DNA of 64,000 nt from Phycisphaerae bacterium (GCA_039683615.1 JBDKRA010000029.1:53256-117255); one strand, 5' to 3'; shown: positions 6,610 to 45,482, counted from the first letter of the stretch. Numbers and translations are program-made. The notes: generated by a model not told the origin, from the sequence alone.

Positions 6610-6644
6610 AATTCCCTCTCCCTGCGGCGGGGCGGGGATTCTGC

Positions 6645-15368: not shown

Positions 15369-15396
15369 AGCAGTTTCTCCCCGGCCGCCGACCGCT

Positions 15397-16038: not shown

Positions 16039-16102
16039 GCGCCAATCTCCGTAAAAGTTCCTGCTGGGGACGCTACGGCTCGGCCGCGCGTCGCTGGGTG
16101 TC

Positions 16103-17173: not shown

Positions 17174-17176
17174 GGC

Positions 17177-18325: not shown

Positions 18326-18393
18326 GTCAATCTCCCTGCAACAAACGACCCTATTCTAGCGGATGTTTCGCCGCTAATGCAACCGGCTTATTC

Positions 18394-19491: not shown

Positions 19492-19708
19492 GGCAGTACT
19501 CCCCAACAGCAGGTTCTCTCCGATCCTCAAGGCCGGGCCACTGCCGCTTGCGGGTTGGCAGGTTCTCTGCTTGCCGAACAACTGCCAGGCCGCAAGCGGC
19601 AGAGGGAACAGCCGGATTCTTCAGGCATGTCGGCCCCGGGCATTTTTCGCTATGGCCCGGCGGCCGCGTGTTCGTATGATTAGACGCAGTAGTTGCAGAA
19701 AAGTTCCC

Positions 19709-23880: not shown

Positions 23881-24971
23881 GAGACCACCTCGCCCAGGAT
23901 CATCTGCGCCAGGCGGTCGGCCTTGGCTGGGGCGATGTCGTCGGGCACTTCCTGGCCGAACGTCGTGTAACTCAGCGGGGCCTTGCTGGCCTCGATCATG
24001 TTCAGCACCAGGCCGTACGTGACGGCCTCGTCGAGCTTGGTCAGCGTGAGGCGGTTGGCGCCGATGCCGGCGAACTTCTCCACCGCCCGCCGCGTGGCTG
24101 CCTGGTTGCCCGTGGCCGATGCCACCAGGTGAACCTCGTCAGCCTCGGCGGCGTCCAGAAAGCTGCGCAGCTGGCCCAGGCGGAGCTGGTCGCCGGGGCT
24201 GCGCCCGGTGGTATCTATAAGGATGACGTCGGCGGCCGTGGCGGCCTTGATCGTTCGGCGCATCTCGGTCGGGCTCAGCACCGCCTGGATAGGCACCTCG
24301 ATGATGTCGGCGTAGGTCTTGAGTTGGTCGACCGCCGCGATGCGGTAAGTGTCGATGGTGATCAGCGAGACGCTCTTGTGCTGGGCGATTTTGAAGTTGG
24401 CGGCGAGCTTGGCGATGGTGGTGGTCTTGCCCACGCCGGTGGGCCCGACGAAGGCGATGACTCTGGGGCCGGCGGCACTCTCGGCCAGCGGAGCAGTACG
24501 GATGCGCGCGGCGATGCGCTTCCGCAGTTCCGTGCGGACGGCGGATTCATCCTGCATCTGCTGCCCGGTCAGGTCGCGGGCGGTCTGGTCGATGAGTTCG
24601 GCCGCCAGCGCCGCCTCGACATCCTGCGCCAGCAGGTGGTCGTGCAGCTTCTGCAGCACCATCGGTCTCTGGACCGCCGCCGACGCAGGCCGGCGGGCCA
24701 ACTGCTCGACGAGGATCTTGATCTCGGCGATCTGCCCATCGAGCCGCCCGGCCGGGGCGGGCGCATCGCTGGCATAGACGCCGGTCAGGGGCGGCAGGAG
24801 GCCGCTGTGCGGGGCGGCGGTGATCTCCCACGCCCGCCGCGAGCCAATGCCCATCCACCCGCCGATGCGGCAGCGGCGCGTGCGCAGGATCACCGCGTCG
24901 CGTCCCAGGTCGCCCTTGACCGCCGCCAGAGCCTCGGCCATCGTCGCTGCTTTATAGTTCTTCGCGTTCAT
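23877..24971 (-). CDS. flhF: Flagellar biosynthesis GTPase FlhF (SRP-type)
   Basis: GPTGVGKTTTIAKLA, DTYRIAA, LIDTTGR SRP-GTPase motifs. Overlaps flhG and flhA. Confidence 0.85.
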   Translation of the reverse strand: MNAKNYKAATMAEALAAVKGDLGRDAVILRTRRCRIGGWMGIGSRRAWEITAAPHSGLLPPLTGVYASDAPAPAGRLDGQIAEIKILVEQLARRPASAAVQRPMVLQKLHDHLLAQDVEAALAAELIDQTARDLTGQQMQDESAVRTELRKRIAARIRTAPLAESAAGPRVIAFVGPTGVGKTTTIAKLAANFKIAQHKSVSLITIDTYRIAAVDQLKTYADIIEVPIQAVLSPTEMRRTIKAATAADVILIDTTGRSPGDQLRLGQLRSFLDAAEADEVHLVASATGNQAATRRAVEKFAGIGANRLTLTKLDEAVTYGLVLNMIEASKAPLSYTTFGQEVPDDIAPAKADRLAQMILGEVVS

Positions 24972-27054
24972 AATGATCTTCCGTGATCGTCACCGGCTGC
25001 ACCTGCACGCCGGAGACTTCGTCGTATCCCAGAACCACCGCCGCCGGAACCGCCGTCGCCACCGCGCCGGCCAGGGCCCTGCGCAGCATGGGCCGGCAGA
25101 GCACCACCGGACGATGGCCCCCCACTCGTAGCCGGCTTGCTCCGGCCGAAACCGCCTGGGCGAGCGTCTCGGCCAAAGCTGGCGAGAGCACCCCGCCGCC
25201 GAGTCCGAGCTCCCGGGCTGCGGACTGTTCGGTCTTCTCGTCCAGGCACAGGCACCACAGGGCCCCGTCGGCGGCGCAGTACTGTTGCGACAGCGCCGGG
25301 CCGAGCTGGCGGCGGATGTAATCGCACGCTTCTTCGATCGGCTCCTCGACCGGTCGCTCGGCCAGTGCTTCGAGGATCGTCTCCAGGTCGCGCACCGATA
25401 CGCCCTGGCCCAGCAGATGCTGCAGGACCTTGTGGATGCGGGCCAGCGGCAGCTTGGCCAGCGTCTCTTTGACCAGCGCCTCCGCCCGGCCGCGGAGTGC
25501 CTCGACCGTGGCGGCCACCTGCTGGCGCGTCAGAAGCGAGGCGGCGTGGATGCGGATCATCTGCCCCAGGTGCGTCATGAGAACGTCGGCCGGCTCGATG
25601 ACCGTGTAGTTGAGCGACTCGGCCGTAGCGACCTGGTCGGCAGCGATCCACACCGCCGCCGTTCCGAATGCCGGCTCGATGGTCTGTCGCCCCAGAAGTT
25701 GACCGGTGGTCGCCCCTGCCGCGACGGCCAGAAGTTGCCCCGGGTACAGCATGCCGCCGCCGACGCGAGCGCCGCGAATCTTGACGACGTACTCGTGCGC
25801 CCGCAGACGCATATCGTCGCGAATGCGGATCGAGGGAACGATCAGACCCAGTTCCAGCGCCACGTCGCGCCGCAGGCCGGCCAGGCGGTCCAGCAGGTCG
25901 CCGTCGCGTGTCTTGTCGGCCAGCGACAGCAGCGCGAAACCCAGGTCCAGTTCCATCGCCTCGACAGCCAGCAGGCCTTTGAGTTCTTTGTCGTCGGCCG
26001 CGGGCTTAGAGACGGTCGAGATGCTCGACGCGTTTGCCGCGGGCAACACGCGCCGCCGTGACAACAGCAGCGCCAGTCCCGCGCATCCGGCCCCCATCAA
26101 CAGCAGCGGCACCTTGGGCAGGCGCGTCAGCATGAGAGCGGCCAAGAACCCCGCCGTCACGGCCAGTGCGATCGGGCGTGCGATCAACTGGCCGATCACC
26201 TGCTCGGCAAAGTTGGTGCGGTCCATGCTGCGCGAAACGATTAGCGCCGCGGCCACGCTGACCAGCAGCGCCGAAATCTGGGCTACCAGCCCGTCGCCGA
26301 TGGTCAGCCGCGTGAACAGGTCGAGCGTCTGCTCCCACCCCCAGGAGTACTGGACCATGCCCACGTACAGCCCGCCGCCGATGTTGACCAGCACGATGAC
26401 CACAGCCGCCACCGCGTCGCCGCGGACGAACTTGGACGCGCCGTCCATCGCGCCGTAGAAATCGGCCTCGCGGGCGATCTTGCGGCGGCGCTGGTGGGCC
26501 TGCGACTCATCAATGGTCCCGGCGTTGACGTCGGCGTCGATGCCCATCTGCTTTCCGGGCATTGCGTCGAGCACGAACCGCGCGGCCACCTCGCTGATAC
26601 GGGCGGCGCCTTTGGTGATCACCACGAACTGCACCACCGCGATGATCGCGAAGAGGATCACGCCCACGGCCAGGCTGCCGCTGGTGACGAACTGGCTGAA
26701 CGACCAGACCACGTGCCCGGCCGCCAGGCGCGCCGTCTCGACATCGGCCCCGCCTGCCCCAGCCGTCAGGATCAGCCGCGTCGTGGCGATGTTGAGCACC
26801 AGCCGCAGCAGCGTCGCTCCCAGCAGCACCGAGGGGAACACGCTGAACTCCAGCGGGCTGTGCACGGCGATGGCCGTCATCAAAATGATCGCCGAGAGGG
26901 CGATGTTGGCCGAGAGCAGCACGTCCATCAGCAGCGGCGGCAGCGGCACCAGCAGCACCAGCACCAGCAGGGCAGCCCCGCCGGGCAACAGCAGCCCGCG
27001 GTATCGCGCCAGCACCCGCGCGGCGCCGTTCATGGTGTCGTTCAGGTCAGCCAT
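24952..27054 (-). CDS. flhA: Flagellar export apparatus protein FlhA
   Basis: Full-length FlhA: FHIPG-like TM domain, conserved FVRGDAVAAVVIVLVNIGGG loop, large cytoplasmic domain. Confidence 0.92.
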   Translation of the reverse strand: MADLNDTMNGAARVLARYRGLLLPGGAALLVLVLLVPLPPLLMDVLLSANIALSAIILMTAIAVHSPLEFSVFPSVLLGATLLRLVLNIATTRLILTAGAGGADVETARLAAGHVVWSFSQFVTSGSLAVGVILFAIIAVVQFVVITKGAARISEVAARFVLDAMPGKQMGIDADVNAGTIDESQAHQRRRKIAREADFYGAMDGASKFVRGDAVAAVVIVLVNIGGGLYVGMVQYSWGWEQTLDLFTRLTIGDGLVAQISALLVSVAAALIVSRSMDRTNFAEQVIGQLIARPIALAVTAGFLAALMLTRLPKVPLLLMGAGCAGLALLLSRRRVLPAANASSISTVSKPAADDKELKGLLAVEAMELDLGFALLSLADKTRDGDLLDRLAGLRRDVALELGLIVPSIRIRDDMRLRAHEYVVKIRGARVGGGMLYPGQLLAVAAGATTGQLLGRQTIEPAFGTAAVWIAADQVATAESLNYTVIEPADVLMTHLGQMIRIHAASLLTRQQVAATVEALRGRAEALVKETLAKLPLARIHKVLQHLLGQGVSVRDLETILEALAERPVEEPIEEACDYIRRQLGPALSQQYCAADGALWCLCLDEKTEQSAARELGLGGGVLSPALAETLAQAVSAGASRLRVGGHRPVVLCRPMLRRALAGAVATAVPAAVVLGYDEVSGVQVQPVTITEDHYEREEL

Positions 27055-27838
27055 CGCTGCCCTCCGTCGGCTTGCGCAGCGATGCCCGCCCGCGCCGTTT
27101 GCTCATTTCCCGCCGCCGAGCCAGGCGGATCTGCGGGTCGCCTTCCATCTTTCGCATGTCGTCGAGGTACTCGCGCCGCGTCATCTTCAGGTCCTGGCGG
27201 AACTGCCATCGCTGGTAGAACAGGTCCACCACCGCCAGCGCCAGCAGCGCCGCCGACGCCCGGATTGCCACCTTCAGCACCGCCCCGCCGCCCCAGGCCG
27301 CTATCTCCTCGCTGCCCCCCGACGTCGGCAAGGCCGTCATGATCCCCAGCGGCGACAGCGCCGCCCATGCAATCGCCCCTGCGGCTGTCACTTTCGCCAG
27401 GCCCAACCCCACGCGCACCCACACGCGGCGGCCGAAGAGCCCTTTCAATCCTTTCATCAAGCCCACGCGCGACAGGTCGAACTTGACCGGCTCGCCTGTC
27501 ATCAGCGGGCCGACCTGTCCCAGCCCAGCGCCGATCGCCAGCAGCGCCGCGGCCAGGCACAGCGCCCCGCCCAGCCACAGCACGCTGCCCAGGCCGGCGA
27601 TCTCAAACGCCCCCGTCGCGCTGGGGGCGCTCTTGCCCGCGGCGTCCAGACTCGCTGAGAACATTTCCCTCATCGCGTTCGTGAGCGACCCGGCCAACGC
27701 CATCAACAGCATCAAGCTGCCAAAGACGACGATCGCGCCGGAGAAGTCCGCGCTGCGCGCAACCTCTCCGCGCCGCCTGGCCTCCTGCAACCGCAGGGGC
27801 GTCGGCATCTCGGTCCGGGATGTAGCGTCTTCACTCAT
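27047..27838 (-). CDS. flhB: Flagellar export protein FlhB, transmembrane domain only (C-terminal cytoplasmic NPTH domain absent)
   Basis: N-terminus PTPLRLQEARRRGEVARS and four TM helices; linker KMTRREYLDDMRKMEGDPQIRLARRRE. The ORF stops 8 nt inside flhA, before any NPTH autocleavage region. Confidence 0.75.
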   Translation of the reverse strand: MSEDATSRTEMPTPLRLQEARRRGEVARSADFSGAIVVFGSLMLLMALAGSLTNAMREMFSASLDAAGKSAPSATGAFEIAGLGSVLWLGGALCLAAALLAIGAGLGQVGPLMTGEPVKFDLSRVGLMKGLKGLFGRRVWVRVGLGLAKVTAAGAIAWAALSPLGIMTALPTSGGSEEIAAWGGGAVLKVAIRASAALLALAVVDLFYQRWQFRQDLKMTRREYLDDMRKMEGDPQIRLARRREMSKRRGRASLRKPTEGSDG

Positions 27839-28020: not shown

Positions 28021-28803
28021 TCACCCGCCGGCGGCGAGCTGCGCGGCCTTGGCGCCGAGCATATCGGCGCCGCGTTCGATCATCGGCAGCATCAGCGCCA
28101 GGCCGCCGGCCAGGGCGATCAGGCCCACCAGCGCCTGGGCCGGCAGGCCGACGGTCAGGATGTTCAGTTGGGGCATCGTGCGTCCGACCACCGCCAGCAC
28201 CACGCCGATCACCAGCAGCGTCACCACCACCGGGGCGGCGATCTTGATGGCCATCACGAACGAGGCCGCCAGCACCGACATGGCGATGTTCAGCATGCCC
28301 TGCCCGCTACCGATGGCGCCCGGCGCAACGGCAGTGAACGTGCCCATCAGCCCGCTCAGCAGACCGCGGTGCCCGCCGACAGCCAGGAACACCACGATGC
28401 CCAGCAGGTACATCAGCCGCGTCAGCGGATCGTCGCCGCCTTCGCCGTCGGCGGCGTCTGCGTAATACACCTGCCCCAGCGTCAGGCCCATCTGCTGACC
28501 GATCAGGGCAGCCGCCACTTCGATACCTGACAGCAGTGCCCGCGCGGCCAGGCCGATCACCGACCCGATCAGCGCCTCGACGGCCAGCGCGACCAGCCCC
28601 GCACCCGTCGAGACGGGCATGGCCAGCGGCGTGGCGATCTGCGCAGCTGCACCCAGCGCCAAGGCCACGCACAGCAGATATCGCAGGCGGGCGGGCAGCA
28701 CCGAGCTGCTGAAGACCGGCGCGATAACGAACAGCCCGCCGATGCGGGCCATCAGCAGCGCCAGAGTCCAGCCCCAGGTTGTGTACTGCGACAAATCCAT
28801 CAT
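28021..28803 (-). CDS. fliR: Flagellar export apparatus protein FliR
   Basis: ~260-aa polytopic membrane protein directly downstream of fliQ, with a FliR-like N-terminus. Confidence 0.8.
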   Translation of the reverse strand: MMDLSQYTTWGWTLALLMARIGGLFVIAPVFSSSVLPARLRYLLCVALALGAAAQIATPLAMPVSTGAGLVALAVEALIGSVIGLAARALLSGIEVAAALIGQQMGLTLGQVYYADAADGEGGDDPLTRLMYLLGIVVFLAVGGHRGLLSGLMGTFTAVAPGAIGSGQGMLNIAMSVLAASFVMAIKIAAPVVVTLLVIGVVLAVVGRTMPQLNILTVGLPAQALVGLIALAGGLALMLPMIERGADMLGAKAAQLAAGG

Positions 28804-29054
28804 CCTGTCCCGAACATCGCTCGCGCGAACTCCACCAGCCGCGTCAGCATCCAGTGCCCCGCCAGCGAGGCCGTCACCGCCACGGCGATCAGCTTGGGCA
28901 CGAAGGTCAACGCCTGGTCCTGGATCTGCGTGGCCGCCTGCAGCAGGCTGACGATCAGTGCGATCACCAGCGCCGCCACGAGCATCGGCGCGCCAACGAC
29001 CAGCGTCACCTTCAGGGCCTCGCGGGCCAGATCCATTGCGTGTGCGGCGTCCAT
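28800..29054 (-). CDS. fliQ: Flagellar export apparatus protein FliQ
   Basis: 84-aa two-TM protein with LQAATQIQDQALTFVPKLIAV, matching the FliQ consensus. Start placed at MDAAHA. Confidence 0.8.
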   Translation of the reverse strand: MDAAHAMDLAREALKVTLVVGAPMLVAALVIALIVSLLQAATQIQDQALTFVPKLIAVAVTASLAGHWMLTRLVEFARAMFGTG

Positions 29055-29056
29055 CG

Positions 29057-29863
29057 TTATCCTTGTGCGAAACTTTGCATCAGCGTGCCGACGACCAGGT
29101 GCCACCCGTCAGCCAGCACGAACAGCAGCAGTTTGAACGGAATCGAGACCATCACCGGCGGCATCATCAGCATGCCCATCGACGTCAACACCGACGCCAC
29201 CAGCAGGTCCACCACCAGGAACGGCAGGTACACGCGGAAGCCGATCCAGAAGGCGGTCTTGAGCTCGCTGACGACGAACGCCGCGATCACGGCCGGCGTG
29301 GGCACATCCTTCCACGTCAGCTTGCCCGCGCGCGAGGCCTCGCTCTGCTTGGCGTCCAGGAACAGCACCACGTCGTTCTGGCTGTTGGAGGCCTCGATCT
29401 GGCGGATCATGAACGTCCGCACCGGCGCGGCGCCGGCGGCCAGCGCCGCCTCGCCCTGCGCACGGCCGGCGAGATACGGCTCGATTCCGTCGCGATACAC
29501 CGCCGAATAGACCGGCGACATCACGACCACCGTCATCAGCAGCGCCAAGCCGAAGAGCACCTGGTTGGGCGGCAACTGATTGGTCGCCATCGCCTGGCGC
29601 AGCAGCCCCAGCACGACGACGATCCGCGTGAAGCACGTCATCAAAATCGCCACCGCCGGCGCGACGGAAAGCACCGTCACCAGGGCGACCCACTTGAGGG
29701 CGTTGCCCGCATCCTGCGGACTCGACAGGCTCGGCAGCGATATCCCAGTCGCCGCAGCGGCGGCGGGCGCTGTCGCCGCTTGCGGCGCGGCAGGCGCCGA
29801 CTGCGGCGCGAACACCGCAGCCGCCAGCACCACCGCAGCAAGGATGTTTTTCTTTGAACTCAT
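29057..29863 (-). CDS. fliP: Flagellar export apparatus protein FliP
   Basis: Signal peptide, then FTRIVVVLGLLRQAMATNQLPPNQVL and a C-terminal FliP signature. Confidence 0.88.
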   Translation of the reverse strand: MSSKKNILAAVVLAAAVFAPQSAPAAPQAATAPAAAAATGISLPSLSSPQDAGNALKWVALVTVLSVAPAVAILMTCFTRIVVVLGLLRQAMATNQLPPNQVLFGLALLMTVVVMSPVYSAVYRDGIEPYLAGRAQGEAALAAGAAPVRTFMIRQIEASNSQNDVVLFLDAKQSEASRAGKLTWKDVPTPAVIAAFVVSELKTAFWIGFRVYLPFLVVDLLVASVLTSMGMLMMPPVMVSIPFKLLLFVLADGWHLVVGTLMQSFAQG

Positions 29864-30318
29864 TTCGGTTCGATAGACTCTTTCGCGGGCGTCTGCGCCG
29901 CCGGCGTGCCCAGCAGCGCCGCCACTTCATCCGCGTCCGTCACTTCCGACAGCGTCGTCATCTGCTCGGGGCCCACGCCCACCAGCACCAGGCGGCGGCC
30001 CATGCGGACCAGGATCACCTGGTGCCGGTACGTCACGCTGCGGCGGGCGACGATCTCGATGGCTGCGCCGCCCCGCACGCCGACTCGCTGGCCGCCCATG
30101 CGCTTCATCGCCGAGCGGACAAGCAGGATCAGGGCGATTACCACCGCCAGAGCCCCCGCCGTGCGCAGCAGGTCCCACTCGGCGCCTGGGGCAGTCCCCT
30201 TGCCGATGGGCCGCTCCTCGACCGACTGCAGCGGCCGCGTGGAGACGTCCGTCGTTGCCGGGGCGCTCTGGGCCATGATGGTTGTGGCTGTCAGAAGAAT
30301 CGCCGCTGCGACGATCAT
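29860..30318 (-). CDS. fliO: Flagellar protein FliO
   Basis: Single TM helix MIVAAAILLTATTIMA. ~150-aa protein immediately upstream of fliP. The track N-terminal extension was rejected because it runs through the repeat elements. Confidence 0.6.
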   Translation of the reverse strand: MIVAAAILLTATTIMAQSAPATTDVSTRPLQSVEERPIGKGTAPGAEWDLLRTAGALAVVIALILLVRSAMKRMGGQRVGVRGGAAIEIVARRSVTYRHQVILVRMGRRLVLVGVGPEQMTTLSEVTDADEVAALLGTPAAQTPAKESIEPK

Positions 30319-30330
30319 GGCGACCCGCTT

Positions 30331-30407
30331 GAAACAAAAACGCGTGTCGCCATGCCACCCGACTGGGAGTTCAGGGACACGCACAACGGAGTTGTGCGTG
30401 GCACCCG
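30331..30407. repeat. Two adjacent repeat elements inside the flagellar operon (fliN-fliO spacer)
   Basis: 30331-30362 GAAACAAAAACGCGTGTCGCCATGCCACCCG is related to 27879-27948 and 35645-35672. 30372-30407 is near-identical to 1428-1464. Confidence 0.6.
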
Positions 30408-30458
30408 TCGCGCATGTCGCGGACGTCTCGCCCGCGTCTTGTTGTTTCCCTGCACGTT

Positions 30459-30686
30459 TCATGTCGTTCTCGCGCCGTCTATCCGCACGCCCAGGCGGTC
30501 CTGCACGCTCACCAGCGTGCCCACTGCCGTCGCTGCGCCGTCGCGGCTTATTTCGACCGCCCCGGCCGCAGGCGTATCGAGCGTGACGATCGAGCCGGGC
30601 GCCAACTCCCGCAGCGCCGCCGCGTTCAGCCACGCCCTGCCCAGGTCGATGCGTACGGCAGTCTGTGTTTCCTGTTGCGTCGTCAT
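30459..30686 (-). CDS. fliN: Flagellar motor switch protein FliN (SpoA domain)
   Basis: RIDLGRAWLNAAALRELAPGSIVTLD...VQDRLGVRI is the FliN/SpoA C-terminal domain. Confidence 0.75.
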   Translation of the reverse strand: MTTQQETQTAVRIDLGRAWLNAAALRELAPGSIVTLDTPAAGAVEISRDGAATAVGTLVSVQDRLGVRIDGARTT

Positions 30687-31135
30687 TGCACGCCCTCGCC
30701 TGCGGATCGCGCGGCGTACGCTTCGTCGGCAGCCGCGGCGGCCAACGCCGTCTCACGCAGGCACTGCTGCCGGCGGCGGCGGTCGGCCAGCGCCCGGGCC
30801 ACCCGCACCAGCAGCACCGCGTCGAGCAGGGCCTTGCGGCTGCGCACGAGCGATTGCTCGCCGTCGCGGGCCTGCTGCTTCAGACCGCCCATCGCGGCCC
30901 GAATGCCATCCACGCTCACGCGGTATCCGGCCGGAACGCCCTGGCCGGCTGGCGAGAGCAAACTGCGCCGTGCCGCCGCGTCGTGCTCATCGAGCGAGCC
31001 GTCCAGCGCCGCCAGCCGACTCCGCAGGGCTGTCAGGTCCTGGTACGTGCGCGCCAGGACCGCTGCAGCCTGGTCTTGCTGCCGGCGGCGAAACCGCACC
31101 AGCATGTCAGCGCATTGCGTGCGTCGGTCGGTCAT
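30683..31135 (-). CDS. fliJ: Flagellar export chaperone FliJ-like coiled-coil protein
   Basis: ~150-aa helical protein between fliI and fliN. Assigned by position and composition. Confidence 0.5.
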   Translation of the reverse strand: MTDRRTQCADMLVRFRRRQQDQAAAVLARTYQDLTALRSRLAALDGSLDEHDAAARRSLLSPAGQGVPAGYRVSVDGIRAAMGGLKQQARDGEQSLVRSRKALLDAVLLVRVARALADRRRRQQCLRETALAAAAADEAYAARSAGEGVQ

Positions 31136-32468
31136 GGAGGTACGTTCCTGTTTCTTGCGGTTCGTCGGCGACCGCAAGCTTTTGCAGTGACGCGATGGTC
31201 TGGTCGAAGTCGCACGGCTCGGCCACGTCCTGCGTCAAGAAGGCGTCGATGGCGTCGCGGGCGGCGATGGCTTCGTCATATTGCGGATTGGCCCCGGCCT
31301 GATAGACGCCCAGGTTGAGCAACTCTTCGACCTCGCGATAGAGCCCGACCAGTCGCCGCACGCGAGCGGCCGCCGCCTGATGTTCCGGCGCGGCGACCTC
31401 GTCCATCACGCGCGATACGCTGGTGACAATGTCGATGGCCGGCCAGTGCCCGCGGTTGGCCAGCGTGCGCGTCAGGTGGATGTGCCCGTCGGCCACCGCC
31501 CGCACGGCGTCGGCCAGCGGGTCGCCCGCGTCGCCTTCCTCGGCCAGCACCGTGTAGAAACCGGTGATCGATCCCGCCGCCGTGCGGCCGCAGCGCTCCA
31601 TCAACTGCGGCAGCAGGTTGAAGACGCTAGGTGTGTACCCTCGCACGGTCGCCGGCTCGCCCGCGGCCAGGCCGATCTGGCGCTGGGCCGACGCCAGGCG
31701 CGTCAGCGAGTCCATCACCAGCAGCACGTTGGCGCCGCGGTCGCGGAAGTATTCAGCCACAGCCGTAGCGACCGCGCCGGCCTGCACGCGCAGCAGCGGC
31801 GGCTCGTCGCTCGTCGAGGCTATCACGACGCAGTGCTTGAGGGCGTCACTGCCAAGTTCCTTGTCGACGAAGTCGCGTACCTCGCGGCCGCGCTCGCCGA
31901 TCAGCGCCACCACCGTCACGTCGGCGATGGCGCGGCGGGCGATCATGCCCAGCAGCACGCTCTTGCCCACGCCGCTGCCGGAGACAATGCCCATGCGCTG
32001 CCCCTGGCCGACGGTGAGCATCGCGTCGATGGCCCGCACGCCGGAGGGCAGCGGCGTGTCGATGCGCCGCCGCGACAGCGGGGCGATGGGCTGCGGCCAC
32101 AGGCTCTGCGGCATCGGCGCGGCCGGCGCCGGCAGGCCGTCGATGCAGCGCCCCAGGCCGTCGAGCACGCGCCCCAGCAGTCCTTCGCACACTCCGACGG
32201 TCTGCTCGGCGAAGGTGCAGTGCACCAGGTCGCCGCGGCGGATGCCCGTCATGGCCCCGGCCGGCATCACCAGCGTGCTGCGCCCGTCGAAGCCGATCAC
32301 GCGGGCGTCCAGCCCGCCGCCGGCGCACGCCAGGCGGCAGCCCGCCCCCAGCGGCACGGCGAAGTCGGCCACGCTGACCGTCAACCCGCGCACCGCCTCC
32401 ACGCGGCCGGTGATGTCCACCGGCTCGATGCGGTCCAGCGCCTCGGATTGTCGCTCAAATATCTGCAT
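31107..32468 (-). CDS. fliI: Flagellum-specific ATPase FliI
   Basis: Walker A GSGVGKS, Walker B LLVMDSLTR, FliI/T3SS-ATPase N-terminal beta-barrel. Confidence 0.92.
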   Translation of the reverse strand: MQIFERQSEALDRIEPVDITGRVEAVRGLTVSVADFAVPLGAGCRLACAGGGLDARVIGFDGRSTLVMPAGAMTGIRRGDLVHCTFAEQTVGVCEGLLGRVLDGLGRCIDGLPAPAAPMPQSLWPQPIAPLSRRRIDTPLPSGVRAIDAMLTVGQGQRMGIVSGSGVGKSVLLGMIARRAIADVTVVALIGERGREVRDFVDKELGSDALKHCVVIASTSDEPPLLRVQAGAVATAVAEYFRDRGANVLLVMDSLTRLASAQRQIGLAAGEPATVRGYTPSVFNLLPQLMERCGRTAAGSITGFYTVLAEEGDAGDPLADAVRAVADGHIHLTRTLANRGHWPAIDIVTSVSRVMDEVAAPEHQAAAARVRRLVGLYREVEELLNLGVYQAGANPQYDEAIAARDAIDAFLTQDVAEPCDFDQTIASLQKLAVADEPQETGTYLHDRPTHAMR

Positions 32469-33222
32469 GCACGCTCGTATCCGCGGCCGGGATGTACCGG
32501 CCGGTCGTATTTTGCTGTGGCTCGCTGGGCCGACCGAGCAGCGCCTGGGCGACCCGCCGCAGTTGCGTTTCGATGGTCGCGTCGACCGCCCCGCAGCGCG
32601 TCAGCACTCGCGCGCCGCCGGCGGCAATGCTGCTGTCGGCCTCGAACCGCACGCGGCCGGCGCGGGCGAGCTGCCGCCAGAGGCGCTGGCCTTCCTGCTC
32701 CAGCGCCGGAAGCTGCCCAGGATTGACGCACACGATGATCTCGTCGGCGTCGCTGGCCAGCTCCATCGCCCGGCGCAGGTTCACCAGCGCCGCGCGAGTG
32801 TCCACGGCCGCCACTTCGCCCACGATCCGCCGCGCCAGCTCGATGCCGAATCGCAGCAACTGCTCCTGGCGGTCCTGCTGGACCTGCCCGGCGGCCGCGG
32901 CCAGTTCGTCCACGATCTTGCCTGCCGCCTGCGCCAGGGCGGACATTCGCAACTGGCTCTTCTGGGCCGCCTGCCGCAGGCCGTGAGCGTAGCCTTCGGT
33001 CTGGCCGCGCTGGAATCCTTGCTCGTAGGCGCTGCGGTTGTAGTTGGTCTGGGCCGACTCGAGCTGCGCCTGTGCGGCGGCGACGATCTGCTGAGCCTGC
33101 AAGCGGGCCTGGTCGAGAATTTCTTTGCCCGCGGCCTCGAAGTCCGGCAGGGCCAACTCGGGCGCGCCGGCGTCGCCGCACGCGGCGGCTTGGATGATCC
33201 AGGCTGTCTTGGAGGCGTTCAT
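32455..33222 (-). CDS. fliH: Flagellar assembly protein FliH
   Basis: Coiled-coil N-terminal half and a FliH/YscL-like C-terminal domain. Start set at MNASK. The upstream in-frame extension is arginine-rich high-GC noise. Confidence 0.65.
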   Translation of the reverse strand: MNASKTAWIIQAAACGDAGAPELALPDFEAAGKEILDQARLQAQQIVAAAQAQLESAQTNYNRSAYEQGFQRGQTEGYAHGLRQAAQKSQLRMSALAQAAGKIVDELAAAAGQVQQDRQEQLLRFGIELARRIVGEVAAVDTRAALVNLRRAMELASDADEIIVCVNPGQLPALEQEGQRLWRQLARAGRVRFEADSSIAAGGARVLTRCGAVDATIETQLRRVAQALLGRPSEPQQNTTGRYIPAADTSVHADI

Positions 33223-35123
33223 GTGGCGGCGGCCTCCCGTGCTTCGTCGAGCGTGCTGCCGCAGCGGCGAACCATGCGGGCGACGTGGTCCTGGGCGGCT
33301 TCCACTTCGCTCAGCCGCACCGGCGGCAGCGTGTCCATCTGGCGGCGCAGGTCTCGCGTCGCGCGGCCGCCGATGCAGTGGAAGATTTTCGTGCGGATGG
33401 CCTGGCCCGCTGTGCGCATCGCCACGGCCAGCACCTGCGGATCGAGTGCGGCCAGTGCGGCGCGGAGTTCGTCGTCGTCGACAAGTTCGAGGTCTTCGAA
33501 CCCCAGCATGTCGCGGCGGATGTTGCGGGCCAGTTGCGGCTGACTCGAGGCCACCAGGTCCATCACGGTCCCGCCGGCGGCACCGCCGGCGTGCGTGAGG
33601 ATGTCGCGAATGACGGCCTCGCCCTGGCCCTGCGGAGTGTGGAGGGCGTTGAGGCGGTCGATGAGCGTATCCAGCACGTCCTGCACCGTTCGCTCGTCGA
33701 CCGTTAGCGGGTGCGCCAGGTGCATCACCACCTGCCGAGCGATCGGGGCATCGAGCGCGGCCAGCATCGCCGCCGACCGCCGCGGGTTCATCCGCGAAAG
33801 CACGATGGCGATCGTCTGCGTCTGCTCGGCCGCCAGCACCCACAGCAAATCGTCGTCGGCCAGGAGCTCCAGCCGGCGAATCTTGCTCTCCTCGGCCGTA
33901 ATCTCGCACGGCGGCTGCGCCACCTGCTCGGCCGCGGTGCGAGCCCTGGCACGACGGCGGCGACGCACGGCCGCGATGATGCAGAAGACCCCCGCCGCAA
34001 CCAGCACACCCGAGCCGGCGACAGCCCAGCCGCTACGGCCCTGCTGCGGCGGGCCCACAAATGCTGCCGCGAGGGCTTTGCCCGATAGCGCGTCGGTGTA
34101 GCAGTCGACGCTGACGGCCTTGGCGTCGGCCCCGATGATTCGCGCCGCGGCGGCGGCGATCCGTGCCGACTCATCGCGCGTGACTTGCTGAATGTCGAGA
34201 TTACGGCTGGCGGCGATGGCCTCGAAATAGCTCCGCGGCGCCAGCAGTGACGCGGCGGTGCAAGACTCGCCCTGCACCGCTGCGGTGACAGTCAGGCCCG
34301 GCACGTACGTCAGGGCCCCGGCGATGCGCTGCTGCCAGTAGTCGGCCACGCGGGCGCGGTTGGCCAGCCGGTCTTCCTGCGCCAGCGTCTCGTCGCCTGG
34401 CCGGTAGCTGCGCCCGCGCTGGTCGATCACGCACACGGCAGTGCGCTCCAGTCCGGCGTTGCTGCCGGCCAGCAGGTCGGCGATGGCGTTGACGAGTTGG
34501 GCGCTCATGCGCGCCTGGGCCCGCATGCGGAGGTTGACCGCAGCGGTGGCCGCGACTGCGGGCTGGCCGATCTTGCCGGCGCGGCCGCCCTCGAAGATGA
34601 CCTCGGCGTACTCGACGTCGGGGAACTGGCCGATCAGGCGCGAGAGCCGCTCGGCCTTGGCGGCCGCGGCGCGCTGTGAACGCTGCGATTCCGACAGCCA
34701 GATGTCTTCCTGAGACGAAGCCGCCTGCGCCGCGAGATCCTGCGGCGTCAGTGAGGCGTCGGTGAGGATCTTACGCGCCGCCGGCAGCGCGTCGGGCTGC
34801 ACGAGCAATCGCCCGCCGACGATCTGGCACTCGATGCCCCCGCCGGAGAGCATGGCGGCGGCGTTCTTGACGTGCTCGGCCGGCAGAGGCTGGTTAAAGA
34901 CGGCCTTGCGCTGCGGGGCAGCGTCGCTGGCCATCAGCCAGATGCCCCCCGCCACCGCCAGCACGGCCAGCGCAGCAAGGGCCGCCTGCCAGATGCGGCC
35001 GGTGACCGTCGCCTGGGCCTTGAGCCTCAGCCAAAGTTTGTACAGCACCTTCACCACGCGGTCCTCCGTGACCGCAAGTTGAGTGGCACGGCAAGAACGC
35101 GTGCCACCCGCTCGATCATCCAT
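33219..35123 (-). CDS. fliF-fliG: Fused FliF (MS-ring) and FliG (rotor/switch) protein
   Basis: N-terminal ~410 aa has TM1, an RBM1-like block (VFNQPLPAEHVKNAAAMLSGGGIECQIVG) and TM2. C-terminal ~215 aa has the FliG middle motif EQTQTIAIVLSRMNPRRSAAMLAALDAPIARQVVMHLA and the torque-helix region RLSEVEAAQDHVARMVRR. Single uninterrupted 634-codon ORF. Confidence 0.8.
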   Translation of the reverse strand: MDDRAGGTRSCRATQLAVTEDRVVKVLYKLWLRLKAQATVTGRIWQAALAALAVLAVAGGIWLMASDAAPQRKAVFNQPLPAEHVKNAAAMLSGGGIECQIVGGRLLVQPDALPAARKILTDASLTPQDLAAQAASSQEDIWLSESQRSQRAAAAKAERLSRLIGQFPDVEYAEVIFEGGRAGKIGQPAVAATAAVNLRMRAQARMSAQLVNAIADLLAGSNAGLERTAVCVIDQRGRSYRPGDETLAQEDRLANRARVADYWQQRIAGALTYVPGLTVTAAVQGESCTAASLLAPRSYFEAIAASRNLDIQQVTRDESARIAAAAARIIGADAKAVSVDCYTDALSGKALAAAFVGPPQQGRSGWAVAGSGVLVAAGVFCIIAAVRRRRRARARTAAEQVAQPPCEITAEESKIRRLELLADDDLLWVLAAEQTQTIAIVLSRMNPRRSAAMLAALDAPIARQVVMHLAHPLTVDERTVQDVLDTLIDRLNALHTPQGQGEAVIRDILTHAGGAAGGTVMDLVASSQPQLARNIRRDMLGFEDLELVDDDELRAALAALDPQVLAVAMRTAGQAIRTKIFHCIGGRATRDLRRQMDTLPPVRLSEVEAAQDHVARMVRRCGSTLDEAREAAAT

Positions 35124-35132
35124 GACAGAGCA

Positions 35133-35474
35133 CTACGTCGCCGGCGCGCCCGAAAGCCGCAGGCGAATCTGCCCGAGCTTCATGCCCGAGGCCTTCAACT
35201 CTTCAATCGAATCCAATCGCTCGAACGCCGACTCGTCATAGAGCCGGTGCCCGCCGCGGGTCCAGCCGCATTCCTGCAGCAGCCCCATGGCCGTGTAGTT
35301 GTGGATCGTCTGGCGGCTGGCGCCGAGATAGTCGGCCAGTTCGCTGATGCGATAGACCTTAGGCGGCCGTCGCCGACCGCCGCGACTCGCCGCAGGCGTT
35401 ATGCCGCCACCAGACCCCACGCCGTCCGAGGAGCTGCCGGCAGGTGTCTGCGGATTTGTGTCTATCGCATCCAT
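35133..35474 (-). CDS. MerR-family transcriptional regulator
   Basis: HTH YRISELADYLGASRQTIHNYTAMGLL and a dimerisation helix. Start set at MDAID. Confidence 0.7.
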   Translation of the reverse strand: MDAIDTNPQTPAGSSSDGVGSGGGITPAASRGGRRRPPKVYRISELADYLGASRQTIHNYTAMGLLQECGWTRGGHRLYDESAFERLDSIEELKASGMKLGQIRLRLSGAPAT

Positions 35475-35611
35475 AAAGGTCTCAAGTGCTGCGCTCACGG
35501 TCGACCGGCTACTACTCTTTACGCTTTGCAAAATGTATAGCACCTGCGGCAAAGCAGCAACGGAAAAATCTTTAGAAAATCTGAAAAAAGTTACCGCCAC
35601 GACGATATGGG

Positions 35612-39436: not shown

Positions 39437-41566
39437 ATGAAAACCCCCGATAGAATGCTCTTTTGCCCAAAGGAGAGGACGTTGACCGCCACACAGACCA
39501 CACCGCAGACGCAGGACCCAGCGGAGAAACGCATCGAGGACGCCCGAACCATCGCCGACCATTTCGAGCAGTCCATCGCCATCACACCGCCGGAGATTCG
39601 CCCCGTCGGCGTCATTGCCGGCCCTCTGCACCGCAATACCGTGCCCAAAACCAACTGGGGCGGCGATAATCTGCACTACCCGATGGACGTCCGCACACTG
39701 ATGCGGTTGGGCGCGCCCGGCATCGCCGCTACCGCACGCACCAACGCCGCACGCCTCGCGCACGAGCAGGCCGACTACCTGCGCAACATCGCCCGCGCGT
39801 TCGACGCCGTCACGGCGTTCATCGCCGCGCACGCCAAGGCCGCCCAGGATCAAATGCCCGGCGCGACCACGGCCGAGCGCCGTCGCCTCAAGACCATCGC
39901 CGATAACTGCACCGCCCTGGCCGCCGGGCCGCCGCAGACCTTCGCCCAGGCCGTGCAGCTCTTCTGGTTCGTGCATTCGCTGCGCGGAATGGCCGACGTC
40001 TCCAGCACCATCGGCCGACTCGACCAGCACCTCGATCCGTTCTACAAAGCCGACATCGCCGCCGGCCGAATCACGCGCGACGAGGCCCTTGAGCTGACGT
40101 GCGAGTTGTGGCGGCTGCTGAACGTCGTGGTCTCGCACCCGGCGCAGGGGCTGATGAACCTGATGGTCGGCGGGCAGGACGCCGCCGGCAACGACGCCAC
40201 CAACGACATGTCGTACCTGCTGATCGACACGGCCATCGCCGTCAACGACACCAACCCGTTCCTCAGCGCCCGTATCCACGCCGGCAGCCCGGCAGCGTTT
40301 GTAGACAAAGTCGTCGAGCTGCAACTCGTCGGCCACGGGCAGGGCACGATATATAATGATGAGCTGATCATCCCCTCGCTGGTGCGTTACGGGGTGCCGA
40401 TCGAGTTGGCCCGCAACTACGCCAACGACGGCTGCAACGAGGTCACCATCGACGGGCAGTCGACCATCGACCTCAACCTCGTCGATTCGCTCAAGGCACT
40501 GGAGTACGTGATCTTCGACGGGGCCGACAACCCCTCCTGCCGCCAGCAGCCCAAGGCCACCTGCCGCAACTACGATACGCCCGGCCACCACACGGGCATG
40601 GCCGAGCCGGGCATCAAGACCGGCGACTTCGCCGCGATGACCAGCTTCGACCAGGTCTTCCAGGCCTTCTGCAAGCAGTTCTATCACCAGATCGACACGC
40701 GCCTGGAGCACTCCCGCCAGGGACGCATCTGGGCGGGCGACCACGCCGTCAGCGCCCCGGTGATGGCCGGGACGTTCGCCTCGGTGCTCGATAGCGGCCG
40801 GGACCCCTACCGCGGCGGCGTCGAGGTGCCGATCCTGTGCATGTTCCTGGGCTCGATGGGCACCGCCGGCGACGCCCTGGCGGCGATCAAGAAAGTCATC
40901 TTCGACGACAAGGCCGCCACGCCCGCCCAGCTTCGCGACGCCCTGGCCTCCGACTGGAAAGGCTTCGACGCGCTGCGCCGCCAGTGCCTCTCTGCACCCA
41001 AGTACGGCAACGATGACGACTACGTCGACAGCATTCTCGCAGCGGCCGTGCGCGGCGCCGTCGACCGCGTCAAAGCCGCCCCCGCAGCCCCTGGGCAGAC
41101 CGTTCTGCCGGCGCTGTTCAACCATGTGTTCCTCGCCACCGCCCAGAACTGCGGCGCCACGCCCGACGGGCGAAAGTGGATGGAACCGGTGGGCGAGCAT
41201 TTCTCGCCAGTCCCCGGCCGCGCCGTCAGCGGCCCCACCGCCGTCATCCGTTCGGCCACCAAGAGCCCGCTGGCCGACGCCGCCGGCGTGGCGATCTTCC
41301 ACGTGGGCCTCTCACGCGACATGGCCCCCAACAATGCCAGCGGCGCTGCCCTGGTTAAGAGCCTGCTCAAAGCCAGCCTCAAGATGGGCGCCACCGTGAT
41401 GAACACGGCGATCTACGACATCGAAACCCTCAAGGCCGCCAAGGCCCACCCCGAAAACTACGCCGACCTGATCGTGCGAGTGTGGGGCTACTCCGCAAGA
41501 TTCGTGGGCCTGTCCGCAGAAATGCAGGACCATATCATCGCCCGCGCGGTCAGGGACAAAAACTGA
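39437..41566 (+). CDS. Glycyl radical enzyme, pyruvate formate-lyase-like family
   Basis: KYGNDDDYVD block, Cys-loop-like NDGCNEV, C-terminal glycine-radical motif LIVRVWGYSARFVGLS (the canonical motif is RVSGY). Confidence 0.8.
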   Translation: MKTPDRMLFCPKERTLTATQTTPQTQDPAEKRIEDARTIADHFEQSIAITPPEIRPVGVIAGPLHRNTVPKTNWGGDNLHYPMDVRTLMRLGAPGIAATARTNAARLAHEQADYLRNIARAFDAVTAFIAAHAKAAQDQMPGATTAERRRLKTIADNCTALAAGPPQTFAQAVQLFWFVHSLRGMADVSSTIGRLDQHLDPFYKADIAAGRITRDEALELTCELWRLLNVVVSHPAQGLMNLMVGGQDAAGNDATNDMSYLLIDTAIAVNDTNPFLSARIHAGSPAAFVDKVVELQLVGHGQGTIYNDELIIPSLVRYGVPIELARNYANDGCNEVTIDGQSTIDLNLVDSLKALEYVIFDGADNPSCRQQPKATCRNYDTPGHHTGMAEPGIKTGDFAAMTSFDQVFQAFCKQFYHQIDTRLEHSRQGRIWAGDHAVSAPVMAGTFASVLDSGRDPYRGGVEVPILCMFLGSMGTAGDALAAIKKVIFDDKAATPAQLRDALASDWKGFDALRRQCLSAPKYGNDDDYVDSILAAAVRGAVDRVKAAPAAPGQTVLPALFNHVFLATAQNCGATPDGRKWMEPVGEHFSPVPGRAVSGPTAVIRSATKSPLADAAGVAIFHVGLSRDMAPNNASGAALVKSLLKASLKMGATVMNTAIYDIETLKAAKAHPENYADLIVRVWGYSARFVGLSAEMQDHIIARAVRDKN

Positions 41567-41601: not shown

Positions 41602-41714
41602 AGACTTTGCCACAAAGAGCACAAAGACCACGAAGAAGAAGACGAAGAGATTTGGTCCCCGTCACTCTCTGTGTTCTTTGTGACCTTTGTGGCAAAGCTT
41701 CTTCTTTCTTTTTG
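41602..41714. repeat. Long imperfect inverted repeat (CTTTGCCACAAAG...CACAAAG family) between the GRE gene and the next gene
   Basis: Left arm CTTTGCCACAAAGAGCACAAAGACCACGAAGAAGAAG and right arm CTCTGTGTTCTTTGTGACCTTTGTGGCAAAGCTTCTTC are reverse complements with a few mismatches. Confidence 0.5.
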
Positions 41715-41724
41715 CGAGAGCAAA

Positions 41725-43367
41725 CGATGAACATGCGAAATGGTCTGGTGGCATTGTCGGTGATCGTTCTTCTGGCCGCTTGCGGCTTCGCGGATGTGCC
41801 CAAGGTCCCCCCGCCGGTCGGGGCGCCGCTGGCGGCGAAGTGGGAGTATAGTCGCGACGGCGGCAAGACGTTCTCCCCTGAGGCGCCGGCGGTGACGGTC
41901 ACCAGCGGACCCGACGCCAAGAACGCCCTCGTCGCGCGGGCGACGTTCAGCATCGACGACATGGCGAAGATCGGCGCCGTAAAGATCGTGACGGCGTCTG
42001 GCACCGGGGCCTTCGCCCTGACCGACGCCGACAGCGTCCAGCGGCGGTACGTCGGGGCGTACCCCACGCTCGTCAACGCCAGGCTGGCCGTCAACGGCAA
42101 GGAGACCGACGCCGGGCATTTCCCCTCGCGTCTATACAACTATCTCACCATCGACCCGGACCTGCTGCACAAGGGCGCCAATACGCTGACAGTCGCCGCC
42201 GTGCTGTGGGCGCCGCCGACTGTTAAGACCGACGCTCCGGCCGGGCTGAGCCTGGAGACGCTCGGGACGGACATGGTCTCGCTCGACCGCGGGCCGACGC
42301 TGGGGGCCATCGGCGAGGACTACTTCACCTTCACCGCCCGCGCCGTCACGGCCTGCGATTTCAGCGTGAGCGTCAAGCCCATCGAGCCGGCCGGCGCGGA
42401 GACGCAGCAGGCCTTGCCCAAGGCGCGGCTGCTGCGGGCGAAGGTAGCGCTTGCCAAAGGAACGAAGAAGTTCGCCTACACGCTGACGGCCAAGTCGGCC
42501 GGCGGGGCGACCAAGGCGTACGGGCCTTACGAAGTGGTCGTGCCGGTCTTCGGCGAGGGGTTCAAGTTCGTCGCCGCGGCCAACACCTACATCTACGGGC
42601 ACCATCCCGAGGAGCTCAAGGCGTTCTTCGCCAAGCTGCCCTCGTCGGGCGGGCAGATCTTCGTGCATGGGGGCGTGATGCAGAACGTGGCCACCCACGA
42701 CCAGATGTGGACGAACGACTTCTTCTACTACAGCCGCGAGGCCCTGGCCCGCATGCCGATGTACGCTGTGCCGGGCTACCCCGACACGTACTCGATGGAA
42801 GCCTGGGGCAGCGAGTTCTACTTCCCCACCCCCGACGGGACATGGAATTACTGGACGCAGGCTTTCGGCAAGGTGCGGCTGATCGGGATCGAGGCGATGT
42901 CGATGATGGAGGACAAAGGCGCGGGCAAGGCCTGGCTCGAGGACGTGCTCAAGAACGCCAAGGAAGATTACGTCATCGTCTTCAACTCGCAGGCGCCAAA
43001 CTGCTCGGGCCAGAACGCCAAGTACTACTCAAAGCCGGCGGTGGAGTACATCGCCAAGGAGATCAGCCCGCTGCTGGTGAAGTACAAGGTGACGGCCACC
43101 ATCGGCAGCTACCACTACAGCTACCAGCGCAACGAGCCGCCGGCCGACGAGAGCGTCACGACGATCATGACCAGCAAGGCCGGCGGGCTGGGCTGGCCGC
43201 TGCGCACGGATTTCGTGGCCGCCAACAAAGAATCGAAAGTCGCCGTCGGATACAAGAACCACTACTGCCTCTTCGAAGTGACCAAAGACGCCCTGCAGAT
43301 GCAGGCGATAGCGTACGAGACCGGAGAGGTCATCGACAAGGTGACGTTCAAACCGCGGGCCAAGTAA
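41725..43367 (+). CDS. Hypothetical secreted lipoprotein
   Basis: Signal/lipobox LVALSVIVLLAACGF. ~545 aa. No confident family. Start placed at MNMRNG. Confidence 0.6.
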
Positions 43368-45368: not shown

Positions 45369-45482
45369 TGTCCAGGCAGCTCTCAGCTCTCAGTTGTCAG
45401 CCGGCACCTATGCTAATGTTTGTACGTTGGAGAAAGCCGCCCGTGGTCAGCCATTCGCACTGCTTACTGACTAGTGAATTAC

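Follow-up and report, generated by a model that had tools for sequence, protein, structure and literature searches.

We describe a natural fusion of the flagellar proteins FliF and FliG, encoded in a 64,000-nt stretch of DNA from Phycisphaerae bacterium (GCA_039683615.1, JBDKRA010000029.1:53256-117255). This stretch is hereafter called the window, and positions are counted from its first letter. The gene lies on the minus strand, where ORF (open reading frame) analysis finds 33219-35123 to be one uninterrupted frame, and it is real, ancient and selected. The fusion is the hallmark of a large clade of Phycisphaerae (Planctomycetota) that is so far uncultured. As for its role, we see about an even chance that it scaffolds a flagellum-derived type III export machine, rather than a canonical rotor.

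The fusion gene and its distribution

A first-pass annotation, made from the sequence alone, had proposed that FliF and FliG are fused in frame here in a protein of 634 amino acids (aa). The frame is indeed open from an upstream ATG at 35123, which gives 634 aa, but the protein more likely begins at a GTG at 35057 and has 612 aa. The GTG is preferred because GGAGG lies 5 nt upstream, NCBI makes the same call (P0001) and the N-termini of homologs agree. The coding sequence thus likely spans 33219-35057. Its stop codon overlaps the ATG of fliH (32455-33222) as ATGA and, as noted in the first pass, no separate fliG is found among the ORFs of the locus between the two genes.

Searches with Pfam and other hidden Markov models (HMMs), which the first-pass annotation had suggested as a check, place YscJ_FliF at residues 80-239, FliG_M at 426-496 and FliG_C at 525-621 (634-aa numbering), each above its gathering cut-off. 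PF01514 (YscJ_FliF) scores 57.4 bits against a cut-off of 24.4, and FliG_C matches with E = 2e-23. The TIGR00207 (fliG) model aligns residues 415-621 of the fusion protein (same numbering) to profile positions 112-320 of 338. Because the first ~110 positions of the profile are without counterpart, FliG_N is missing. A weak Pfam match to FliG_N at residues 434-515 overlaps FliG_M, and we attribute it to cross-talk between homologous armadillo (ARM) repeats. The last 200 residues align over their full length with the FliG_M/FliG_C segments of Thermotoga maritima, Aquifex, Helicobacter and Salmonella in the PDB. Both equivalog scores are far under their cut-offs (TIGR00206, 20.9 versus 129.75; TIGR00207, 95 versus 226.7), and family members carry the NCBI labels 'hypothetical protein' or 'FliG C-terminal domain-containing protein'. 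Current annotation overlooks the family, and no curated equivalog cut-off is reached.

We consider it nearly certain that the gene is real and encodes a FliF-FliG fusion. One could suppose instead that a frameshift, an assembly join or a pseudogene has merged adjacent fliF and fliG genes: the sequence comes from a single metagenome-assembled genome (MAG) of a high-GC organism (~62-72% over the window) in which long spurious ORFs are common. But an ortholog (P0002) that is 80% identical and 614 aa long, with equal domain layout and the same operon, is present in a different MAG (GCA_021372275.1), and independent assembly of run SRR15035646 by Logan yields a protein identical to P0002. Comparison of the window gene with the P0002 ortholog by the Nei-Gojobori method gives a ratio of nonsynonymous to synonymous substitution rates (dN/dS) of 0.23 overall, with 0.16 for the periplasmic FliF part, 0.13 for FliG_M, 0.28 for FliG_C and 0.67 for the second transmembrane segment (TM2) plus linker. 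Values of 0.13-0.28 in the domains indicate that both halves of the fusion are under purifying selection. Furthermore, the ~130 residues that make up the FliF tail and FliG_N are cleanly absent, not frame-shifted, a structural model is confident across both halves, and the same architecture recurs in at least 80 diverged cluster representatives from many samples. These data effectively refute an artefact, to which we give next to no weight, and bear out the proposal of a natural in-frame fusion.

The distribution of the fusion became apparent when 1.84 billion cluster representatives (50% identity) were searched exhaustively with HMMER, with 120 proteins matching at E ≤ 1e-30. Of these, at least 80 have lengths of 590-690 aa and give one collinear alignment over both halves, with TM1 at ~24-42 and TM2 at ~345-385. 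Ordinary FliF (~530 aa, TM2 at ~440) and FliG (~335 aa) ranked far lower in the same search. The exhaustive representative search was needed, as word-indexed homolog searches yielded only two matches with the protein and five with an 80-sequence profile. We also scanned GTDB (one genome per species) and, among the best 80 of 559 matches, found 13 fused loci, all in MAGs labelled Phycisphaerae, Phycisphaerales, Planctomycetota or 'Planctomycetaceae'. A scan of Joint Genome Institute (JGI) metagenomes added 26 further fused loci. Named carriers are, without exception, uncultured Phycisphaerae or Planctomycetota MAGs. No cultured carrier was found, including among the closest 120 FlhA homologs, every one of which comes from a MAG or metagenome. 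Many other Planctomycetota, other Phycisphaerae included, have a separate fliF (550-580 aa) and fliG (340-360 aa).

In a neighbour-joining tree of FliI, all fused loci form one clade that is nested within planctomycete FliI and sister to a canonical group, with branch lengths that are ordinary. This monophyly points to a single origin of the fused clade. Full-text literature searches turned up no report of a natural FliF-FliG fusion in planctomycetes or Phycisphaerae. Two loci that initially seemed to place the fusion beside flgD/flgE or motA/motB (L152, L156) encode ordinary FliGs of 345-354 aa with spurious short N-terminal alignments. Three longer proteins (P0124, P0135 and P0148; 764-791 aa) match YscJ_FliF, FliG_M and FliG_C without FliG_N or YscJ_FliF_C and carry ~150 extra residues between the halves; judged by this domain content, they appear to be long-insert variants of the fused architecture.

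Architecture of the FliF and FliG halves

To describe the protein we use the 612-aa numbering and an AlphaFold2 model built from an 80-sequence alignment (mean predicted local distance difference test score, pLDDT, 87.6). Hydrophobic segments lie at residues 25-43 (TM1) and 346-364 (TM2). In the model, TM1 is a helix at residues 21-43 (34929-34997), followed by a domain of the type of ring-building motif 1 (RBM1) at 50-100, RBM2 at 148-211 and a third domain of alpha-beta-beta-alpha-beta order at 223-320. The RBM1-RBM2 segment (34425-34910) is the part that matches Pfam YscJ_FliF, and the family profile aligns with residues 18-268 of Salmonella FliF and no further. The third domain (34098-34391) resembles RBM3 without a β-collar. 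TM2 occupies residues 350-372 of the model; taken together with the hydrophobic segment it extends over 346-372 (33942-34022) and contains GVLVAAGVFCIIAAV. On the cytoplasmic side, a low-confidence linker (372-387) leads into all-helical FliG_M and FliG_C (388-611). Foldseek comparison of the model with the PDB matched FliF, SctJ-type and FliG structures. The FliF-like N-terminus with TM1 and RBM1, the TM2 and the FliG middle and C-terminal sequence beyond it, all described in the first pass, are therefore present, on the evidence of Pfam, hydrophobicity, the model and the PDB alignments.

In Salmonella FliF, RBM3 comprises residues 228-270 plus 382-438, and the β-collar comprises residues 271-381 (PMC8270960). 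We aligned 30 fused proteins with 30 separate planctomycete FliFs and found two blocks in the separate proteins only. One is an insertion of ~75-85 residues after fused residue 262, which corresponds to the collar; the other consists of ~45-50 C-terminal residues, which correspond to the FliG-binding tail. In the fusion, the would-be insertion point of the collar is a tight β-hairpin at residues 262-265 of the third domain (nt ~34263-34274). PF08345 (YscJ_FliF_C) has no match in the fusion protein by Pfam, and the RBM3-like core is still present in the model. The two separate-only blocks, the lack of YscJ_FliF_C and the profile alignment that ends at Salmonella residue 268 all indicate that the fusion protein is a collar-less, tail-less FliF joined by ~20 residues to a FliG without its N domain. 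The reduced periplasmic region of the first-pass annotation is thus explained by loss of the collar insertion in RBM3, with its length corrected from ~330 to ~300 aa, and the absence of FliF tail and FliG_N that it reported is confirmed by this comparison and the TIGR00207 alignment.

What stands in place of the FliF C-tail and FliG_N is an Arg-rich disordered linker (residues 373-387, 33897-33941). It is ~15-20 aa long in the model, with pLDDT below 50 at residues 372-384 and the elevated dN/dS given above, and FliG_M starts ~20 aa after TM2. The first pass had stated that the fusion fixes FliF and FliG at 1:1. In canonical motors, the symmetries of the membrane/supramembrane (MS) ring and the cytoplasmic (C) ring match at 33-34-fold and the FliF-tail:FliG_N complex is itself 1:1 (review, PMC7355467), so this stoichiometry is no novelty in itself.

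The FliG middle domain spans residues 388-475 (33633-33896; Pfam FliG_M, PDB alignments) and the C-terminal domain residues 500-600 (33258-33560; Pfam FliG_C, alignment to T. maritima FliG structures). Within the latter, the torque helix is GGRATRDLRRQMDTL (residues 563-577, 33327-33371) by alignment with T. maritima FliG. The FliG_C reported in the first pass is present, but the segment quoted there as the torque-helix region ('RLSEVEAAQ...') is the helix that follows; the torque helix itself reads GRATRDLRRQMDTL.

To compare individual sites, we mapped 66 separate FliGs and 80 fused proteins onto T. maritima FliG and used E. coli / T. maritima numbering. Mutational work has established R281, D288 and D289 as the principal contacts of FliG with MotA. 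In the separate FliGs, R281 is Arg in 66/66, D288 is acidic in 66/66 and D289 is acidic in 65/66, values that may be modestly inflated because this set was retrieved by a motif next to the torque helix. Among the fused proteins, the corresponding counts are 11/80, 21/80 and 38/80. Positions 281 and 288 scatter across the fused family with no new fixed residue. The window protein has R281, with Arg in place of D288 and Gln in place of D289. Fourteen fused loci from the same motif scan as the separate FliGs give an equal picture, and this like-for-like set removes most of the concern about ascertainment.

Other sites are better kept. R297 is Arg in all 66 separate FliGs and in 79 of the 80 fused proteins, and K264 is Lys or Arg in all separate FliGs and Arg in 67/80 fused proteins; the window protein has Arg at both. 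The FliM-binding EHPQ motif and R160 are invariant in the separate FliGs but for one H126L (65-66/66) and are retained in 61-76/80 fused proteins. In the window protein, EHPQ reads EQTQ and R160 is His, and the same EQTQ...H replaces EHPQR in its 80%-identical ortholog.

The export operon and the role of the fusion

The fusion gene is followed on the minus strand by the flagellar type III export set (FliH, FliI, FliJ, FliN, FliO, FliP, FliQ, FliR, FlhB and FlhA), encoded together. After fliH (Pfam FliH) come fliI, the export ATPase gene (31107-32468; ATP-synt_ab and T3SS_ATPase_C), and a probable fliJ (30683-31138), which is weak in the window (TIGR02473, E = 8e-5, below cut-off) and has orthologous genes that match Pfam FliJ. 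The next gene is a minimal fliN of 75 aa that consists of the SpoA domain only (30459-30686; FliMN_C), and then follow fliO (29860-30462; FliO), fliP (29057-29863; FliP), fliQ (28800-29054; Bac_export_3) and fliR (28021-28803; Bac_export_1), the last three occupying 28021-29863. A truncated flhB (27047-27838, 263 aa, TIGR00328 positions 2-246 of 348), flhA (24952-27054; FHIPEP, E = 2e-211), flhF (23877-24971; TIGR03499 above cut-off), flhG (23032-23880; a ParA/MinD-type ATPase) and fliA, the sigma-28 gene (22024-22818; TIGR02479 FliA_WhiG above cut-off), complete the run. Of these operon parts, FliO, FlhF and FliA score as flagellar. Directly upstream of the fusion gene is a gene for a MerR-family regulator (35133-35600, minus strand; MerR_1 and synteny), whose true start is probably internal, orthologs being 113-146 aa. 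A 266-aa ORF at 32381-33181 (minus strand) was considered for fliH and rejected: it has no family match and is a wrong-frame shadow ORF, whose match to the ortholog locus (E = 1e-100) stems purely from DNA conservation. In a genome of such high GC, a long ORF is not to be relied on unless it has a family match.

Approximately 45 fused loci share the rigid order merR-fliFG-(fliHIJ)-fliN-fliOPQR-flhB-flhA-flhF-flhG-fliA, with merR directly 5' of the fusion gene in essentially all of them. In a few, for example L014, L086, L090 and L095, fliN-fliO directly follows the fused gene and fliH-fliI-fliJ is not in the operon. FliN is 74-100 aa long in the other fused loci and 166 aa in a canonical planctomycete locus (L044). 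The canonical planctomycete order is sensor kinase, sigma-54 activator, flgB, flgC, fliE, fliF, fliG, fliH, fliI, fliJ, ..., flgD, flgE, ..., fliN, fliO, fliP. Several canonical loci (L037, L039, L045, L058) also have a MerR-like gene, located ~7 kb upstream of fliF and preceding the kinase/sigma-54 activator/flgB-flgC-fliE block. Given the placement of merR in both, the fused operon looks like the canonical one minus that block.

We then looked for the genes of the rod, hook and stator. HMMs for FlgB, FlgC, FliE, FlgD, FlgE, MotA and MotB were built from canonical loci, where they match ~50-60 loci. The flanks covered were about ±10 kb at most fused loci and ~30 kb on each side in the window. 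There was no match to FlgB, FlgC, FliE, FlgD, FlgE or MotB in the ~45 fused contigs or the 64-kb window. The MotA model gave one marginal match on the fused contigs (E = 8e-4), to an ExbB/TolQ-type gene of the window (15397-16116). This gene belongs to an ExbB/ExbD-like pair (14814-16116), which we rejected as a MotAB stator as it scores as TolQ/ExbB plus TolR/ExbD (MotA, E = 6.5e-4, versus TolQ, 9e-17). Altogether, no rod, hook, filament, FliM or MotAB genes were found in the window or in the ~45 fused loci with their flanks of up to 10 kb, and the remainder of the window holds housekeeping genes. Secretin SctC, SctD and needle or translocon proteins had no Pfam match among the scanned window ORFs, in which no dedicated search for them was made.

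The window FlhB consists of the transmembrane domain only; it lacks the C-terminal NPTH autocleavage/switch domain, and its stop codon overlaps the flhA start. Comparing FlhB within fused loci (the flanks of canonical planctomycete loci end short of flhB), we found it to be ~260 aa long and without the C domain in 10 of the 13 fused GTDB loci (L001, L004, L005, L007-L009, L011, L013-L015). Three fused loci encode a full-length FlhB, in which the NPTH position reads AGDG (L006), DPHG (L012) or NPHG (L040). The place of the autocleavage motif is taken from the Salmonella sequence. We found no FlhB_C-like ORF standing alone in the fused-locus sequence examined.

Collectively, four linked differences separate the fused system from its canonical relatives: the collar, the stator-contact triad, the FlhB C-domain and the adjacent rod and hook genes. 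The lost stator-contact charges, the degenerate EHPQR of the window protein, the truncated FlhB and the export-only operon all go beyond what the first-pass annotation had described. The β-collar encircles the proximal rod, FlhB_C serves as docking site and switch for substrates of rod and hook type, and flgB, flgC, fliE, flgD and flgE encode rod, hook cap and hook. A flagellum-derived type III export machine is the most economical reading, because the lost parts serve rod and hook or torque, and the FliM-binding motif and the export components remain constrained.

Such a machine could be assembled as follows. The N-terminal half (TM1, RBM1, RBM2, collar-less RBM3 and TM2) would oligomerise into an MS-like ring around a FliPQR-FlhB-FlhA gate, with FliG_M-FliG_C of each subunit held on a ~20-residue tether below TM2. 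A cytoplasmic FliG ring would then form in obligate 1:1 register, without the joint in which FliF tail and FliG_N are co-folded. This ring would recruit FliN and, in most members, probably FliM, because the EHPQR motif is largely kept; via both, it would recruit FliH-FliI-FliJ. From the joint losses of collar, FlhB C-domain, stator-contact charges and neighbouring rod and hook genes, we infer that the machine has most likely given up both a canonical rod and torque transmission. It would instead be an export or secretion device, still positioned by FlhF/FlhG and coupled to sigma-28.

Several observations weigh against this proposal and favour a different one, that the fusion is the rotor of a working, remodelled flagellum, with the rod, hook, filament, FliM and MotAB genes elsewhere and a stator that has co-evolved with the torque-helix charges. 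Flagellar genes are often dispersed, and those for rod, hook, FliM and Mot may be located beyond the flanks examined. The operon retains FlhF, FlhG, FliA and FliO, all typical of true flagella. FliG_C is under purifying selection and its fold is strongly conserved, as seen at R297 and K264, and the mostly intact EHPQR implies that FliM is present. The basic residue at 287 is fairly well conserved. So is a basic residue three positions after R281, found in 55/80 fused proteins, which could reflect co-evolution with a divergent stator, not contact loss; the possible inflation of conservation in the separate FliGs counts on the same side. Branch lengths in the FliI tree are unremarkable. Flagella and ordinary fliF and fliG genes are present in cultured Phycisphaerae (PMC13514998). 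Finally, a Salmonella deletion fusion without most of FliG_N is still motile (PMC7355467), so fusion alone does not preclude rotation. A remodelled flagellum, however, requires special explanations for the loss of the β-collar, for the loss or decay of FlhB_C and NPTH, and for R281/D288/D289, which are nearly invariant in the 66 separate FliGs and unconserved here. We regard it as a serious contender, though one we would somewhat rather bet against.

The fused operon might also be a second, paralogous flagellar-type system that serves a non-motility role beside a canonical fliF/fliG cluster, a sub-case of the export machine. Its compact, export-only make-up without structural genes and the relaxed constraint on FliG contacts fit this idea. 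However, none of the 13 fusion-bearing GTDB genomes is also among the canonical loci, a weak argument given that only the best 80 of 559 matches were taken, and the FliI tree (fused clade sister to a canonical planctomycete clade, with similar branches) fits orthologous replacement equally well. We think a paralogous system improbable.

In its full form, the export-machine proposal is that free-living Phycisphaerae of one widespread, uncultured clade harbour an unrecognised offshoot of the flagellum: an export machine without rod socket or stator interface, with both rings in one polypeptide, placed by FlhF/FlhG and tied to sigma-28. We hold this tentatively, at slightly less than an even chance. 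If true, this would be a case parallel to, and independent of, the injectisome and the flagellar remnant of Chlamydiae, and it would capture in nature a flagellar basal body turning into a secretion device. If these genomes truly are without axial and stator genes, they would contain a new flagellum-derived secretion lineage in environmental Planctomycetota, which would bear on the origin of non-flagellar type III systems from flagella and on the flagellar genes of the Chlamydiae, members of the same superphylum. In any case, the linked losses predict which basal-body parts serve rod and torque and which serve export.

Relation to known fusions and other genes of the window

Fusions of FliF and FliG as such are already known. 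The Chlamydiaceae have a natural one (CT719-type; NF004606/PRK05934) of ~330 aa, in which RBM2 and a single additional RBM are followed by no more of FliG than a FliG_M-like tail (Bergeron 2016, PMC4768692). It shares with the Phycisphaerae fusion the Planctomycetes-Verrucomicrobia-Chlamydiae (PVC) superphylum, a reduced FliF with two TM helices and no SpoIIIAG-like collar, FliG-like sequence at the cytoplasmic end and a partial flagellar gene set. The chlamydial genes are few, though, and the host is non-flagellated (PMC4768692), whereas the Phycisphaerae protein has 612 aa with RBM1-3, FliG_M and FliG_C and heads a full export operon with flhF, flhG and fliA. The window fusion scores 27.6 bits with NF004606 (cut-off 297), in the RBM2 region only. 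In an NCBIfam scan of 45 family members, 31 match NF004606 and 42 match flagellar fliF. A shared origin with the chlamydial fusion is thus unsupported: the match is confined to a weak one in RBM2, and the family resembles flagellar FliF and FliG more closely.

The closest functional analogues are laboratory fusions in Salmonella and Vibrio. In the Salmonella deletion fusion, FliF is likewise joined to FliG without most of its N domain; C rings assemble and the cells are motile with altered bias (PMC7355467), showing that a covalent link can replace the FliF-tail/FliG_N joint. The Salmonella fusions, full-frame and deletion, and the engineered Vibrio FliFG (PDB 8z4d) are otherwise canonical, with collar, torque-helix charges and FlhB intact, unlike the Phycisphaerae system. 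Of 8z4d, only FliG_MC (717-931) and an N-terminal FliF segment (55-300) can be aligned with the family profile. With canonical FliF (TIGR00206; PF01514 plus PF08345) and FliG (TIGR00207), the fusion shares homology in sequence and predicted fold and the order fliF-fliG-fliH-fliI; it differs in lacking the β-collar (PF08345), the FliF C-tail and FliG_N, and in its unconserved stator-contact triad. The Phycisphaerae protein represents a third type among FliF-FliG fusions, set apart by its structure and linked to an operon that is remodelled and export-only.

This fusion is a natural experiment on the joint between MS ring and C ring, in which a short covalent tether replaces the FliF-tail/FliG_N domain across a large, diversified clade. 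For structural work, it offers a naturally 1:1, self-anchoring FliF-FliG ring.

Other unusual proteins came up in the searches. An 865-aa ORF of 'uncultured bacterium O_MB67' (L062:8036-10633, plus strand) matches YscJ_FliF, YscJ_FliF_C, FliG_N, FliG_M and FliG_C, and an 838-aa FliF-FliG fusion (P0136) has FliG_N and no YscJ_FliF_C match. Both combine FliF and FliG in one ORF like the Phycisphaerae fusion but retain FliG_N, and they look like end-to-end fusions of proteins that are otherwise complete. In the FliI tree, L062 falls outside the planctomycete group and clusters with Bdellovibrio/Oligoflexia-type loci. A further protein (P0146, 996 aa) contains a FliM domain, five DUF4116 repeats, FliG_M and FliG_C and appears to be a natural FliM-FliG fusion.

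Elsewhere in the window, the Tol/Exb pair is part of a minus-strand cluster (14814-19620) with genes for two von Willebrand-A proteins and a TPR protein; the pair scores as Tol/Exb, not Mot. The cluster lies downstream of fliA, beyond a HIT gene and a family-2 glycosyltransferase gene. On the plus strand, 39437-41566 encodes a pyruvate-formate-lyase-like glycyl-radical enzyme and is followed by a 586-aa ORF without Pfam match (41607-43367), and 43548-45389, on the opposite strand to the glycyl-radical enzyme gene, encodes a radical-SAM protein with a Radical_SAM_N domain. A 623-aa ORF at 4936-6807 (minus strand) ends in sigma-70 regions 2 and 4, and the ~450 residues before them contain HTH_23/HTH_38-like segments; judged by these matches, its product would be an unusually long sigma-factor-like protein.

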